A DNA stretch of 64,000 nt from Candidatus Parcubacteria bacterium (GCA_019661785.1 JAIFWP010000003.1:31009-95008); one strand, 5' to 3'; counted from the first letter of the stretch, positions 9,740-24,050 are shown. Notes: generated by a model not told the origin, from the sequence alone. Numbers and translations are program-made.

Positions 9740-9940
9740 CTAGAGCTCTACTGGGAGCTTCACTGCCCTCGGCTTCTTGAAGAAGTTCAAGAATGCTGCC
9801 CACATAGAGAGCTTTACTGGCTTGTGGCTCTCGGCGTAGCGAGAGAGCACGGCGAACATCTCGCCCTTCTGTCGCGAGGTTAAAGAGACCTTCCTAACCT
9901 TATCTAAACTATTTTCGAACTGTGATTTGTGTATTGTCAT
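9740..9940 (-). CDS. Hypothetical 66 aa protein translationally coupled to the ECF sigma factor (possible anti-sigma or partner)
   Basis: Its ATG immediately follows the TAA of the upstream sigma-factor gene. No TM segment or zinc motif. Confidence 0.4.
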   Translation of the reverse strand: MTIHKSQFENSLDKVRKVSLTSRQKGEMFAVLSRYAESHKPVKLSMWAAFLNFFKKPRAVKLPVEL

Positions 9941-10444
9941 TTATTTTACGTCATAGTGCATAGCCTCTCGTAAGATCCTAAGCCCTCTGTTAATGCGCAC
10001 GGACACAACATTGGCAGACTCCCCTATTATCTCTGCTATCTCCTTGGGCTTAAGTCCTTCTACGCAGCGCAGGTATACCGCGTCGCGGTAGGTCTCGTCC
10101 AAAGCGTTTATCTTCCTCACCAGGTTCTTGGCCTCCGCCTCTATCTCTATGCCGGCGGATGAGGAAAGGAGCTCGTTCTTGTCCTCGGAGCCCTCGATGA
10201 GCATGCTCTCTAAGGAGACTGCCTTCTTCTTCCTATACCAGTCAATGATGAGGTTCCTTGCTACAGCGAAGAGGAAGGCTCTGCAGTTCTTTATCTGCTT
10301 GTCCTTGCAGAGCGTATCCCAGAAGCGCATGAAGGTGTCCTGGGTCAAATCAAGGGCCAAATCATGATCAGAAGTGCGCAAAAGGCAAAATCGAAAGACC
10401 GAGTCGGCCTCTGTTCCATATACTTGTTCGAACTGTTGTTGCAC
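9941..10444 (-). CDS. RNA polymerase sigma factor, ECF subfamily (sigma-70 regions 2 and 4)
   Basis: 167 aa. Region 2 (DLTQDTFMRFW..NCRAFLFAVARNLIIDWYRKK) and a region 4 helix-turn-helix (YRDAVYLRCVEGLKPKEIAEIIGESANVVSVRINRGLRIL). Confidence 0.85.
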   Translation of the reverse strand: MQQQFEQVYGTEADSVFRFCLLRTSDHDLALDLTQDTFMRFWDTLCKDKQIKNCRAFLFAVARNLIIDWYRKKKAVSLESMLIEGSEDKNELLSSSAGIEIEAEAKNLVRKINALDETYRDAVYLRCVEGLKPKEIAEIIGESANVVSVRINRGLRILREAMHYDVK

Positions 10445-10625
10445 TTGGTTCTGAATGGCGATTGAGTCCTTAATCCGCCCAAACAGTCTAGACGGTCGAA
10501 GAGGTCTATTATTACAGGTAAGAGCCCCTCTCTACAAGCGTCATTGGTTGTACAGACAGGGTGTGGCAATAGAGAAGCCTCCACTCTGCTGACACAGCAT
10601 TAGCATTAATTAAATAACAGATAAC

Positions 10626-11318
10626 ATGTCTAGAATTACAAACAGATTTATGAGCATTCCGCTCGGCCTCTCGCTCCTAGCAATGGCAGCGACTGCAAAC
10701 GCACAAGTAGCTCAGCCTATGGTTGGCATCCAGCTCTTGAGCTCAGGACTTACTTCGCCATTGGTTGCATCCTCTACTGGTGCCACCATCGCGCGCCTCG
10801 TCCTCGACACCACAGGATCTCCTGAGGCAGTCAGGATCTCGAGCCTCCCATTCGCACTCTCACTCGGCAACGGCGCAGTAGCCTCGACCCTCACCAACTG
10901 TAGAGTTGCGAACGAGTCGAACTCAGGAGTCAACTTGAGCACCCCAACTGGCTCAACTTCAGGCTTGGTCTCCGGTCTCAACACCGTAACCTTGAGCTCG
11001 CCTCTCGTATTGCAGGCAGGCACCGTTACCACTCTTGACCTCGTCTGCGACCCTTCGGCAGGACTCGTCACTGGCGGTACCTTCACTGTAAGCGTGAACA
11101 CAGCTAACGTAGCAGCTACTGGCAACTCTACTGGTCTCCCAGCAGTCGTTACCGTACGCGGAGCTACTCCAGTAGTTATCCCTCCGGTCATCATCCCTAC
11201 TGTTCCTAACACAGGTGCAGGCGGCGATGCTTCCACGAACGTCGCTCTCCTCTTCGGCGCCATCACCTTGGCAGTCGCAGGTATAGCACTTACCAGGAAG
11301 ACAGCACAGGCTCGCTAA
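10626..11318 (+). CDS. Secreted surface protein with a C-terminal cell-wall sorting signal (VPNTG + hydrophobic segment + RK tail); putative sortase substrate
   Basis: Signal peptide ..AMAATANA|Q, a Ser/Thr/Gly/Val-rich body, and the C-terminus VPNTGAGGDAS-NVALLFGAITLAVAGIAL-TRKTAQAR. Confidence 0.7.
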   Translation: MSRITNRFMSIPLGLSLLAMAATANAQVAQPMVGIQLLSSGLTSPLVASSTGATIARLVLDTTGSPEAVRISSLPFALSLGNGAVASTLTNCRVANESNSGVNLSTPTGSTSGLVSGLNTVTLSSPLVLQAGTVTTLDLVCDPSAGLVTGGTFTVSVNTANVAATGNSTGLPAVVTVRGATPVVIPPVIIPTVPNTGAGGDASTNVALLFGAITLAVAGIALTRKTAQAR

Positions 11319-11397
11319 TAGTAGATTAGCTAAAGCAATGAAAGCGGGCGCCCTTGCTACCAAAATAGAAGGCGCCCGCTTTCGTTATACTACTAAA

Positions 11398-12069
11398 ATG
11401 CAAAGCAACCCCCACAAGTCCTTAGGCATCCTCCTCATAGTCCTTGGAGTTGCCCTAGCGAGCTTCATCATAGTGCGCTCCACTCTCTACGCGCCGGATA
11501 CCGAGCTAGAGCCTCCTATAAACGAGCCCGTAGCCTCGGTCGTGATGGCTACAAGCTCGGTCATTGCGAGCGTCGCTACAGGGACTCCCAAGACCACTCC
11601 TGCTGTGACTGCAGTCCCCTCCCACTACCCTGTGAGACTCTCTGTGCCAAGCGCTAATGTGAATGCTGGTGTCCAGTATGTAGGTATAAAAGCTGACGGC
11701 TCTATGGCCAATCCCTCGAACTTTACCGATGTGGCTTGGTACAAGCGCGGTACAACACCAGGCGAGCCCGGTAGCGCGGTCATTGCGGGACATGTCGACA
11801 ACGCTCTCGCTCTCTCCGGAGTCTTCAAGCATCTTGCCGATACCAAAGTCGGCGACGATGTCTACATAACGCGCAAAGATGGGGTGAAGCTCCACTTCAG
11901 AGTGACCAAGGTAGCCTACTACCCGTACAAGGAAGCGCCCAACCGAGAGATATTCCTCTCTAGCGACGGCAAGGCGCACTTGAACCTAGTAACCTGTGCC
12001 GGCACTTGGATATCCTCCGCCCACTCCTACGACAAGAGGTTGGTGGTCTACACCACGTTAGTGGAATAG
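11398..12069 (+). CDS. Sortase (transpeptidase), membrane-anchored
   Basis: N-terminal TM, then the catalytic His (VIAGHVD), Cys (LNLVTCAG) and Arg (RLVVYTTL). The start is placed after the 12 bp hairpin that follows the substrate gene. Confidence 0.8.
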   Translation: MQSNPHKSLGILLIVLGVALASFIIVRSTLYAPDTELEPPINEPVASVVMATSSVIASVATGTPKTTPAVTAVPSHYPVRLSVPSANVNAGVQYVGIKADGSMANPSNFTDVAWYKRGTTPGEPGSAVIAGHVDNALALSGVFKHLADTKVGDDVYITRKDGVKLHFRVTKVAYYPYKEAPNREIFLSSDGKAHLNLVTCAGTWISSAHSYDKRLVVYTTLVE

Positions 12070-12077
12070 ATAGGGAA

Positions 12078-12120
12078 AGATGAAAGCCCCGCTCCGACCT
12101 AGGTCGGAGCGGGGCTTTTT
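12078..12120. terminator. Bidirectional intrinsic terminator between convergent genes
   Basis: aaaGCCCCGCTCCGACctagGTCGGAGCGGGGCttttt is a 13 bp stem with A-run and T-run flanks. A near-identical copy sits at 57258. Confidence 0.65.
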
Positions 12121-18039: not shown

Positions 18040-19061
18040 GGATTAATACTCTCACTTAGAGCTATCTCAAGCGGGAGTTCGGGGATAGTGCTGCGGCCGG
18101 AGGCCTCGGCAGCGTCGATAAACTTGAGCAGGATGTCAGCGGTGAGGCTCTTGTCCGCTTTCCCTGCTAAGTCCTTCATAAAGTTGAAGTCATCTTCAGA
18201 CGTCTCGCCGAGGATGTAGTCGTCGAGCCCAGCCTTGAGTCGGATAAGGAAGAGGTAGCGCAAGTTCTCAAGTATGAGCCGAGCAAAGATCTTCATGTCG
18301 GCATTGCTCTCCCGCGCCATTGCAAGAGCCTGCATGCCCCTCTTCAAGTCGTGCTCGACGATGGATGCCAATACATCGCGGACTAGGCCCGCGCGCGGAG
18401 CGCCAGTGACTCTCTCAACTTCTTCTCTACTTACCTGCTTCTCTTGTGAACTCGAGAAGATTTTATCGAGGATGCCGGCAGTATCGCGGAAGGAGCCATC
18501 CCCTAGCAAGGAGACGAGCTCGGCCGACTCTGGGTCTAGCTTCCTCCCCTCTTCCTTAGATATATGCAGAGCGAACTCTCTTAGGATTTTCTGGTTTGGC
18601 CGCTTGAAGACGAAGGCCTGGCACCTGCTCTGCACTGTATCAGGGACCTTCTCTAGCTCGGTTGTAGCGAGTATGAATATGACATGCGCTGGCGGCTCCT
18701 CAAGGGTTTTGAGGAAGGCGTTCCAAGCGCCCTTCGAAAGCATGTGAGCCTCGTCGAGGATGTAGACCTTATACTTCGACTCGAAGGGCAGTGTGTGCAC
18801 GGCCTCGTTCAAAGCCCTTATCTCATCCACGCCGTTCTGCGAGGCGGCGTCTATCTCATAAATGTCTGAAGCCGAGGTACCGAGCTCAGAGGCAAAAATC
18901 CTCGCCACCGAGGTCTTGCCTGTACCGCGCGAACCAGCAAAGAGGTATGCGTGCGCCATAGTACCGAGCTTGACCTCATTGCTCAAGACCGAGACGATGG
19001 ACTCTTGGCCCACGACATCCTTCCACGCCTTGGGGCGATACTTGCGATATAGGACCGACAT
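18036..19061 (-). CDS. dnaX: DNA polymerase III subunit gamma/tau (short form)
   Basis: Walker A (GSRGTGKTS), Walker B (ILDEAHML) and sensor/Arg finger (SRCQ). Confidence 0.9.
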   Translation of the reverse strand: MSVLYRKYRPKAWKDVVGQESIVSVLSNEVKLGTMAHAYLFAGSRGTGKTSVARIFASELGTSASDIYEIDAASQNGVDEIRALNEAVHTLPFESKYKVYILDEAHMLSKGAWNAFLKTLEEPPAHVIFILATTELEKVPDTVQSRCQAFVFKRPNQKILREFALHISKEEGRKLDPESAELVSLLGDGSFRDTAGILDKIFSSSQEKQVSREEVERVTGAPRAGLVRDVLASIVEHDLKRGMQALAMARESNADMKIFARLILENLRYLFLIRLKAGLDDYILGETSEDDFNFMKDLAGKADKSLTADILLKFIDAAEASGRSTIPELPLEIALSESINP

Positions 19062-19128
19062 GGCAAAAGTATATAAGAAAAAACCCCACGAGACGAATCT
19101 CGCAGGGCCTTTGTTTTCCTCCGCCTTG

Positions 19129-20427
19129 TCAGGGCGTTACCCAAGCCCAGGTGGCCTTGAGTGTGGCGTTGGTGAGCGAAGCCTGGACGCTAATGAGAGA
19201 CGTCCCGGATGCTATCGACACCACCTTGCCGTGCGGTCCGACTGGCCAGTTGAAGCCGCTCACGTTCTGGAATCCATCCGTCGCGTTGACGTCGTGGATC
19301 TCAGGGTGAGTGCTCGACCAGAACTCCTTGTCACCGCAGGTTGCCCCGCCGGACAGGTTGCACGTTGCGAGCGTTGTAACGGTCGCATTGAGCGCGATGT
19401 TACCCCCATGCGGCGTGTAGTCGATGGAAGGTCCGCCAGTAGTGCACGGCGTGTTGGTAACGACTATCGGCACCTGCACCGAGATGCCCCCGGCCGAGAC
19501 TGTAGCTGTCGCGTTTCCTACTGCGACTCCTGTAAACGTCCAGCTCCCGCCGGAACCACTCACCGTAGCCACTGTCGTTGGAGATATGGTTACAGTTACC
19601 GGTATCGTTGGTGCCGCGCCGTTGACAGAGACCGCGAAGGTCTGCGTGTTCGTGCACCCTGTCCCGATATTGATGTTGATACTCGTCGGGAGTGTCTGTA
19701 TCTGGATGCCGGATGTGACATTTACGGCCTGCACCGTGCAAACCGTGGTACTGCCTGTAGCGCAGAAGGTGACATTGACTGTCCCTACTCCTACTCCGCT
19801 TTCCTGGCACGTGCTCGTGTTGACGATAGCCACGATGCCCGAGTTAGCACTCGTACAGGTGAAGCTGCCCGCCGCCGTACTCGTCGTATTGTCCGAGTAG
19901 TGGACTGTCACCGTCGGAGTCTTCACCGTGCCGACTGGATACGTATCCGGATTCGGCTGAACGGTGATGCTCGTCGGGGTCTTGCCCGTGGGGACAATCC
20001 CATTCACCTGAACAGTGAAGCAGAACATGATGGTCGGCGCGGCATCGATGATGTCGCAGACCTGAGCCGTACCCGCACGGATAGCCGTGACGAGTCCAGT
20101 GGTCGTGCCGACCATCACCACCGTGGTGTCCGAGGACGTCCAGTGGTGCGCCGTCGAGACGCAGCCCCTCGGGTTCGTTGTGATGGAGTCCGAGAGCTGG
20201 GCCGTCTCCCCCACGTTGAGGATGAGTATCCCGCCCGAGAGCGCCTTCGAGGAGTTCTCGAAGATGGTGGCCGAACAGTTGCCGTTCGTGGTCTGGCTGG
20301 TGATCTGGCCCACCGGCACACCGATAGAGCCCTGCGAATCGCTATCTGAGATAGCCGTTATCTGACAGCCCACGAGTGTGAGCACGGTAGCGGCCAAGGC
20401 CGCTCCGAAACACAGCTTTGCCCGCAT
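19129..20427 (-). CDS. Cys/Thr-rich surface lipoprotein with repeated bacterial Ig-like (Big_2-like) domains
   Basis: Signal peptide with lipobox LTLVGC, then roughly 400 aa of Thr/Val/Ser/Cys-rich beta repeats. The ORF is visibly GC-richer than its neighbours. Confidence 0.65.
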   Translation of the reverse strand: MRAKLCFGAALAATVLTLVGCQITAISDSDSQGSIGVPVGQITSQTTNGNCSATIFENSSKALSGGILILNVGETAQLSDSITTNPRGCVSTAHHWTSSDTTVVMVGTTTGLVTAIRAGTAQVCDIIDAAPTIMFCFTVQVNGIVPTGKTPTSITVQPNPDTYPVGTVKTPTVTVHYSDNTTSTAAGSFTCTSANSGIVAIVNTSTCQESGVGVGTVNVTFCATGSTTVCTVQAVNVTSGIQIQTLPTSININIGTGCTNTQTFAVSVNGAAPTIPVTVTISPTTVATVSGSGGSWTFTGVAVGNATATVSAGGISVQVPIVVTNTPCTTGGPSIDYTPHGGNIALNATVTTLATCNLSGGATCGDKEFWSSTHPEIHDVNATDGFQNVSGFNWPVGPHGKVVSIASGTSLISVQASLTNATLKATWAWVTP

Positions 20428-20533
20428 AGTTTCTGCCTCTGAATCTGGGTTGACCTACATTAACTGACGAGGAACATGGGTTTCCTTACCCATTCCTAGC
20501 ACAGGAGACGCACCGTGTCAAAACTCCTTACAG

Positions 20534-24028: not shown

Positions 24029-24050
24029 TCCCTAATAGTATAATACAGGG

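Follow-up and report, generated by a model that had tools for sequence, protein, structure and literature searches.

Does an extracytoplasmic function (ECF) sigma factor encoded beside a sortase gene and the gene of that sortase's substrate govern the surface protein, and how are the levels of enzyme and substrate set relative to each other? These questions are raised by a 64 kb stretch of DNA (53% GC; hereafter the window) from a Candidatus Parcubacteria bacterium, a member of the Candidate Phyla Radiation (CPR), in which a sigma factor gene on the minus strand diverges from a plus-strand cassette formed by a substrate gene and a sortase gene. The substrate open reading frame (ORF) matches KW800_02365, a hypothetical protein from a Candidatus Parcubacteria metagenome-assembled genome (MAG), at 100% identity. 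An earlier reading of the window sequence, which we call the original prediction, had proposed a dedicated sortase-substrate pair with a non-canonical sorting motif, perhaps under envelope-stress control by the sigma factor, and a hairpin between the two genes acting as an attenuator.

We compared the window with 27 related loci that carry substrate homologs, taken from genome and metagenome collections, and with further loci reached via the sigma factor; all of the regulatory claims made here are drawn from sequence analysis. The comparison points to a surface protein driven by the ECF sigma factor, a dedicated class-F-like sortase, and uncoupled levels of the two proteins, and we regard this combination as the probable account of the locus. 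A literature search found no paper on ECF regulons or promoters in the CPR, nor on this substrate-sortase cassette.

A promoter motif shared by the sigma factor and substrate genes

The sigma factor gene (9941 to 10444, minus strand) has a GTG start and encodes a 167-residue protein of the ECF (group 4) class, as originally predicted. Its domains are Pfam Sigma70_r2 and Sigma70_r4_2 only, corresponding to regions 2 and 4, and it scores 78.3 bits against the TIGR02937 sigma70-ECF model, for which the cut-off is 42.9; an NCBIfam scan returned no specific or named ECF equivalog at its cut-off. The protein has 718 homologs at E ≤ 1e-30, many of them 56 to 92% identical, and all those with a named source are annotated as Parcubacteria or Patescibacteria.

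Alignment of the regions upstream of the substrate gene yielded the motif GTAAG[AG]-N15-CGT[CT], whose spacing is invariant. In the window it takes the form GTAAGA-N15-CGTC at 10518 to 10542 (plus strand), a predicted ECF-type promoter of the substrate gene and the sole exact match to GTAAGA-N15-CGTY in the window; when the G-tolerant form is allowed, it is the only intergenic exact match in the window directly upstream of a gene, apart from a copy at 20507 to 20531. The motif precedes the substrate gene with the same 15-nt spacing in the window and in the 24 related loci for which upstream sequence is available (those listed are L001 to L021, L023 and L026, plus L029 and L031), and it is kept whether or not a sigma gene is nearby. 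No motif was found in L024, which has a truncated substrate match only.

A one-mismatch version of the same motif, GTAATA-N15-CGTC (10491 to 10515, minus strand), sits 46 nt upstream of the sigma GTG and is a predicted autoregulatory promoter. The form GTAAKA-N15/16-CGTC lies directly upstream of the sigma gene in ten of twelve loci (the window, L001, L006, and L028 to L034), including five (L028, L030, L032, L033 and L034) in which no cassette is annotated beside the sigma gene. One-mismatch matches are expected by chance at about 6 per 128 kb. In L028 to L034 the motif usually ends 8 to 9 nt before the start codon, so that the sigma mRNAs of several relatives would be leaderless.

Because the motif precedes both genes, the simplest reading is an autoregulated sigma factor whose regulon includes the substrate gene as a conserved member; since the motif also precedes the substrate gene where no sigma gene is nearby, this link would be independent of adjacency. 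A CGT-containing -10 element and autoregulation from the factor's own target promoter are reportedly hallmarks of ECF sigma factors. The original prediction had asked whether the sigma factor's own promoter motif recurs upstream of 10626, where the substrate gene begins, and it does so at 10518 to 10542. With both placements of the motif conserved, the proposal that an ECF sigma factor controls the surface-protein gene is supported at this level. In the window the two predicted -35 boxes are divergent and stand back to back at 10510 to 10523 with a gap of 2 nt (TATTAC AG GTAAGA), compared with 15 to 90 nt in the relatives, and two holoenzymes may compete or interact there.

We inspected another nine motif sites, one-mismatch matches among them, eight with a downstream ORF and one without an ORF in range. 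Seven of these eight ORFs encode signal-peptide or membrane-anchored proteins and the eighth a small KGG-repeat stress protein, an envelope-protein bias that fits what is expected of an ECF regulon. The second intergenic copy in the window, GTAAGG-N15-CGTC at 20507 to 20531 (minus strand), lies 79 nt upstream of a gene (19129 to 20427, minus strand) for a 432-residue lipoprotein with the lipobox LVGC, Ig-like repeats predicted by eye and a lysine content of 1.6%. This lipoprotein is a candidate further member of the regulon; a longer arginine-rich ORF antisense to it (18862 to 20349, plus strand) is probably spurious.

The small partner ORF that had been predicted to follow the sigma gene is present. 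It encodes 66 residues (9740 to 9940, minus strand), and its ATG abuts the sigma TAA (TAAATG) with zero gap and no overlap. A small ORF of about 62 to 69 residues with the motif LRKVSLTxxEK lies 3' of the sigma gene in most loci (homologs in L001, L006, L029, L031 and L034, and unannotated ones in L028 and L030); none was detected in L007 or L010. The partner is a candidate soluble anti-sigma factor or co-factor. It has no Pfam or NCBIfam family, transmembrane (TM) segment or HxxxCxxC motif, permissive Pfam scans of it and its homologs returned nothing meaningful, and no membrane anti-sigma factor or stress sensor is evident at the locus. With a partner that has neither a TM segment nor a recognisable anti-sigma domain, the envelope-stress part of the original prediction is not sustained. 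The sigma orthologs of L028, L032, L033 and L034, which are not next to a cassette, share a conserved neighbourhood, in which a divergent gene for an uncharacterised protein of about 200 to 244 residues is followed by ftsE/ftsX-like ABC genes, and Gmad2-domain and GGDEF genes often lie upstream.

The surface protein and its sortase

The substrate gene (10626 to 11318, plus strand) encodes 230 residues with an N-terminal signal peptide (ANA|Q27), a beta-sandwich domain of about 150 residues containing two invariant cysteines, a Pro/Val linker, and the C-terminus VPNTG-AGGDAS-TNVALLFGAITLAVAGIAL-TRKTAQAR, in which VPNTG is encoded at 11202 to 11216. The signal peptide and all three parts of a sorting signal (pentapeptide, hydrophobic segment and basic tail) are thus present as had been described, with Val in place of the canonical Leu at pentapeptide position 1. 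An AlphaFold2 (AF2) model places a C-terminal helix at residues 202 to 229. The 107 substrate homologs are all of about 230 residues and none has a Pfam domain; those with a named source are annotated as Parcubacteria, Minisyncoccota or Zambryskibacteria.

The original prediction took VPNTG as a sign of a separate sortase specificity. Among the homologs the sorting motif is VPNTG in 31, LPTTG in 26, LPATG in 11, MPATG in nine and IPATG in five, with others minor. In a set of 105 homologs the conserved positions are P2, T4 and G5, and position 1 holds V, L, M, I or, in a single case, F. The family signal is [VLMI]PxTG; in most homologs AGG[ED]A comes next, and then a TM segment and a basic tail of a few residues. 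Since these residues interchange at position 1 we rejected a non-canonical specificity: position 1 is merely a variable hydrophobic residue, and Val there is, on this comparison, a marker of the clade nearest the window and not of a distinct specificity.

In 87 of 92 homologs the mature domain (10704 to 11213 in the window) lacks lysine altogether; the averages per 172 residues are 0.05 Lys and 5.5 Arg. Proteins of the window average 7.4% Lys, so that the chance of finding none in 171 residues is about 2e-6, and the substrate has the lowest Lys content among 59 ORFs. The mature protein begins with an invariant Gln, and C92 and C141 are likewise invariant. We speculate that the Gln is cyclised to pyroglutamate, which would leave the anchored protein without a primary amine and unable to act as a sortase nucleophile. 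A still broader proposal, which we put forward as doubtful, is that the substrate is a major Parcubacteria coat protein selected to be amine-free, acting as an acyl donor only, its synthesis being the main conserved outcome of an ECF sigma factor present across the CPR. Were this true, an uncultured lineage that depends on a host would gain a first regulon and surface-assembly pathway open to experimental test, and the promoter code GTAAGA-N15-CGTC of a CPR-wide sigma factor could be read directly from genomes. A general compositional bias of surface proteins is a possible alternative explanation of the lysine poverty, because the candidate-regulon lipoprotein is also poor in lysine.

Two substrate copies depart from the family pattern. 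In L026 (5001 to 5679) the homolog is recovered in two tblastn segments, indicating a frameshift or an assembly error, and in L024 (5001 to 5342) only substrate residues 9 to 125 are matched and there is no sortase match; both copies may be pseudogenes or misassemblies.

The sortase gene encodes a membrane-anchored protein of 223 residues (11398 to 12069, plus strand) that scores 72.8 bits against Pfam PF04203 (peptidase C60; threshold 26.6), with residues 81 to 222 spanning the whole profile. The catalytic residues H132 (in AGH), C200 (in L[VI]TC) and R214 (in RLV) are invariant in 17 orthologs and are encoded at 11791-93, 11995-97 and 12037-39, respectively. The membrane anchor and His/Cys/Arg triad of the original prediction therefore stand, and its start codon at ATG 11338 does not: the ortholog sortases all begin with Met, three to eight residues including K/R, and a TM helix, an arrangement matched by ATG 11398 (MQSNPHKSLGILLIV...), which is most likely the true start. 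With the start at 11398, the hairpin is intergenic, lying in a 79-nt gap and not inside the ORF.

Classification with sortase-class hidden Markov models (HMMs), which the original prediction had suggested, gave class F as the best class, with 129.6 bits against NCBIfam class_F_sortase (NF033748), below the cut-off of 166. Rival models score far lower (30.4 bits for the generic TIGR01076, and at most 26.3 for classes E, GN, D and C), and the enzyme is best described as class-F-related and divergent, not as a certified class F member. Among solved structures, phmmer with the sortase found none, and a profile search found distant sortases only, the best being class C at E = 2e-7.

Wherever a related locus has enough downstream sequence, the sortase gene comes directly after the substrate gene and is oriented the same way, as it also is in two of the loci reached via the sigma factor. 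Across the window and every fetched locus (about 244 kb in total, some 180 kb of it from related loci), scanning detected no further credible ORF bearing a sorting signal. Conserved gene order and the lack of a second sorting-signal protein in this span bear out the idea of a dedicated sortase-substrate pair.

Transcription of the cassette

The hairpin that had been noted between the substrate and sortase genes is GC-rich, with a 12-bp stem (AAAGCGGGCGCC...GGCGCCCGCTTT) and an exact span of 11341 to 11382 (plus strand); the stem consists of a 9-bp GC core that reaches 12 bp with A3/T3 pairing. The 79-nt intergenic RNA has a predicted folding energy of -35.2 kcal/mol (z = -6.0), and none of 200 shuffled sequences folds as well. 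A strong, near-perfect hairpin of 11 to 22 bp (z of -4 to -12) is present in all 18 orthologous intergenic regions, with differing sequences. In a 12-locus alignable subset, compensatory double changes occur in 12 of 16 pairs around an invariant GATG/CATC core, and because complementarity is kept in this way the structure is evidently under selection. The core RGATG...CATCY is common to the hairpins of 16 loci (including L002, L003, L005, L007, L008, L014, L015, L021, L022 and L026) and has no further occurrence in 221 kb; it is fixed in one clade only, and the stems of the window, L001, L006, L013, L016 and L019 are unrelated in sequence and at the same position. An Rfam scan of the window returned tRNAs only, with no known riboswitch or leader in the 5' untranslated region (UTR) of the substrate mRNA or in the intergenic region, and a consensus scan yielded neither a sigma-70 promoter nor a terminator of relevance here, its loop-size limit excluding the intergenic hairpin.

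The end of the stem lies 9 to 17 nt (about 14 nt) from the sortase ATG in 16 of the 18 loci. Immediately beyond the hairpin in the window is the -10-like hexamer TATACT (11386 to 11391, plus strand), which occupies positions -12 to -7 with 6 nt between hexamer and ATG and is a predicted leaderless promoter of the sortase gene. A -10-like hexamer starts at -13 to -11 in nine of 18 sortase orthologs and at -15 or -17 in four more, several with TGn. This arrangement is frequent in the window: a -10-like hexamer starts exactly at -12 in nine of 42 ATG-start genes where 0.54 would be expected (about 17-fold), and at -14 to -11 in 13 of the 42 against 2.1 expected, and Shine-Dalgarno-like sequences are rare. 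These counts are evidence that leaderless-type starts are common in this genome. Individual examples are TATAAT at 24038 to 24043 (ATG 24051), TAAAAT before the minus-strand ATG 28091 and TATACT before ATG 39097, the latter two each 6 nt before the ATG. The constant distance from stem to ATG would be explained by a hairpin followed by a -10 box and a 6- to 7-nt discriminator.

Most of the ortholog hairpins have no U-tract, the 8 nt that follow the full stem containing 2.3 T on average; in the window the GC core is followed by TTTCGTTA, with 5 T in 8. Downstream of the sortase gene this lineage has hairpins of the classical terminator type, in which an A-tract, a stem and a T-tract succeed one another and the T-runs are clear. 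In the window such a canonical bidirectional intrinsic terminator (A-tract, 17-bp GC stem and T-tract, identified by sequence and fold) at 12084 to 12120 serves both strands and separates the convergent sortase and phosphoribosyltransferase genes; because it is a U-tract terminator, unlike the intercistronic hairpin, the lineage evidently does use them.

A structured 5' end is predicted for the substrate mRNA as well. A stem-loop, CAGGGTG...CACTCTG (10557 to 10588, plus strand), was found in the 5' UTR by leader comparison and RNAalifold; the leader is predicted to be about 77 nt long, and the stem-loop lies close to its 5' end. Each of the 21 leaders inspected has arms of the form CAGRG...CYCTG and an apical insert that varies, and RNAalifold recovered six pairs, three of them with compensatory changes; we infer that the stem-loop may stabilise the mRNA. 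Between it and the substrate ATG (10589 to 10625 in the window, and in orthologs) are conserved AT-rich blocks (ATTA..TTAA..ATTAT), often palindromic (ATTAGAATTCTAAT in L008 and AATAATTAATTATT in L006), which may serve as an operator, form a weak hairpin or mark a translation-initiation region lacking a Shine-Dalgarno sequence.

The scarcity of U-tracts, the constant spacing and the leaderless -10 signature favour two transcription units, a monocistronic substrate mRNA ended or stabilised by the hairpin and a separate leaderless sortase mRNA. The strongest competitor, which we consider possible though on the whole unlikely, is a single operon transcribed from the ECF promoter, in which the hairpin is a leaky terminator that keeps the ratio of substrate to enzyme high and the sortase gene has no promoter of its own. 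Such an operon would suit the shared orientation, invariant order and short gaps (60 to 122 nt) of the two genes, and the general lack of a strong U-tract would make termination incomplete; in the window, given its partial T-tail, the hairpin could be a partial terminator with read-through. There is also too little space 3' of the hairpin for a full -35/-10 promoter. However, the window and most orthologs have a -10-like hexamer at or near the leaderless position, and a stem-to-ATG distance of about 14 nt is predicted by a -10 box with its discriminator and not by an attenuator. Moreover, a read-through mRNA would place a very stable stem 11 to 17 nt before a start codon that has no Shine-Dalgarno sequence. 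The attenuator of the original prediction is thus real as a structurally selected hairpin, but read-through is not its best interpretation, as TATACT and the constant spacing suggest that the sortase gene has its own promoter. Both the two-unit and the attenuator models give an excess of substrate over enzyme.

The adjacency of sigma gene and cassette, which the original prediction emphasised, holds in a subclade only: the sigma gene divergently adjoins the cassette in the window, L001, L006, L029 and L031, is separated from it by about 3.2 to 3.5 kb in L007 and L010, and in the L002 genome is on the cassette's contig at a distance of more than 6 kb. Elsewhere the cassette stands beside a 23S rRNA gene, divergently adjoining a 23S(-5S) rRNA operon in L003, L004, L005, L008, L012, L019, L021 and L026. 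In these loci a conserved block (AACATTTCTAGGTAA...TATACCC...GTGTCAAA) lies about 110 to 190 nt upstream of the substrate ATG, with TTGACA...TATAGAAT on the opposite strand. It was considered as a second regulatory element of the cassette and rejected, a divergent sigma-70 promoter serving the adjacent 23S-5S operon being the most likely identity.

This restricted adjacency would suit a reading in which the synteny is coincidental, the motif being used by another sigma factor or regulator or being no promoter at all, and the sortase being a housekeeping enzyme with many substrates. The same reading would account for L007 and L010, in which no motif was found upstream of the sigma gene even at two mismatches, and for L031, in which a second ECF sigma gene lies nearby and the cognate sigma factor is then only putative; each genome, moreover, was seen in part. 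We nevertheless judge coincidence quite improbable. Two non-homologous upstream regions share ten specified bases at identical spacing across loci whose proteins are 45 to 90% identical, autoregulation from the promoter that the factor itself recognises is a hallmark of ECF sigma factors, the further motif sites are enriched before envelope proteins, and the scanned 244 kb holds no second sorting-signal protein. Least credible is the idea that the intergenic palindrome acts as DNA, whether by binding a dimeric regulator as its operator or as a site of recombination or nuclease action, for although the RGATG...CATCY core is shared by 16 loci and confined to them within 221 kb, and its 4-bp GATG/CATC part stays invariant while the flanking pairs vary, those pairs change on both sides so as to keep complementarity, which a DNA-binding protein does not need, unrelated stems occupy the same position in six loci, and stems of 11 to 22 bp with 3- to 6-nt loops are typical of RNA hairpins.

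Proposed model and comparison with known systems

In the model that we prefer, a widely conserved ECF sigma factor would recognise GTAAGA-N15-CGTC and, from promoters of this type, transcribe both its own gene, in positive autoregulation, and the gene of the 230-residue substrate, the latter as a monocistronic mRNA. This mRNA would be flanked by the 5' stem-loop and the strong 3' hairpin, which would terminate the transcript, stabilise it, or both, the transcript ends and the efficiency of termination being predicted. The sortase would be made from its own housekeeping-type -10 promoter right after the hairpin, as a leaderless mRNA possibly supplemented by read-through, and separate promoters would uncouple the levels of enzyme and substrate. 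Sec export and cleavage of the signal peptide would leave an N-terminal Gln on the substrate, and the sortase would then cleave [VLMI]PxT|G and move the substrate to an envelope acceptor, presumably a peptidoglycan precursor; the biological role of the anchored protein is likewise a matter of prediction.

Several observations weigh against this model, namely the two loci with no motif before the sigma gene, the second ECF sigma gene in L031, the five of 18 orthologs in which no convincing -10 box precedes the sortase gene, the partial T-tail of the window hairpin and the sub-threshold class F score of the sortase. To these we add that the usual ECF -35 element has an 'AAC' core, from which GTAAGA departs, that the window covers only 64 kb of this genome and other substrates are possible elsewhere, and that the model as a whole is built from sequence.

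Next to nothing is known of transcription signals, regulons and envelope assembly in the CPR/Patescibacteria, which are mostly uncultured. A conserved ECF motif with its probable sigma factor could be used for regulon prediction across hundreds of MAGs, and common leaderless mRNAs bear on the prediction of gene starts in CPR MAGs. A surface protein that has no family annotation and a dedicated sortase is a candidate for a role in host attachment or envelope structure, and a possible tag with which to label or enrich CPR cells.

The system belongs to known kinds, and the accepted picture of sortases and of ECF sigma factors is unchanged by it. Sortases are common in CPR genomes (PMC6744442). 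The enzyme is closest to the class F sortases, such as SrtF of Cutibacterium (Propionibacterium) acnes and the class F paralogs of Streptomyces, with the class F model scoring about 100 bits over the others. It is like them in being anchored to the membrane at its N-terminus, in the His/Cys/Arg triad with an L(I/V)TC motif and in a linked signal of the LPXTG type, and differs in scoring below the class F cut-off, in its CPR lineage and in a motif with V, L, M or I at position 1. SrtF of P. acnes recognises LPXTG (PMC8225981). That enzyme is described as a housekeeping sortase, whereas the Parcubacteria enzyme is strictly paired with a single substrate gene. Dedicated cassettes, including SrtB-IsdC, class D SrtD with its targets and the class GN 'marine' sortase with its one partner, show the same adjacency of one sortase and one substrate in conserved order; the class B, D and GN models give at most 24 bits here, however, and the motif is still LPXTG-like and not NPQTN or LPXTA.

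The closest functional analogue is the Sigma-BldN/chaplin system of Streptomyces, in which Sigma-BldN directly activates the chaplin genes and the long chaplins are sortase substrates (PMC4255298). The two systems share an ECF sigma factor (here by prediction) placed over genes for small sortase-attached surface proteins, and an adjacent, fast-evolving partner gene (PMC4255298). The sigma factors are not orthologous, as the BldN-family model gives 67.5 bits against a cut-off of 206; the substrate is a beta-sandwich protein and not a chaplin amyloid domain; and the sortase is class F-like and not class E. Unlike the membrane-bound RsbN, the Parcubacteria partner is a 66-residue protein with no TM segment, and control of the substrate gene by the sigma factor is here a prediction.

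Intercistronic hairpins that give differential expression are known from the papA and fimA fimbrial major-subunit genes, from the repetitive extragenic palindromic (REP) element of malEFG and from pufBA. Like the hairpins of the papA/fimA type, the one described here is a stable stem-loop between the gene for an abundant structural protein and the gene for an assembly enzyme, and it differs from them in that the downstream sortase gene apparently has its own leaderless promoter abutting the hairpin.

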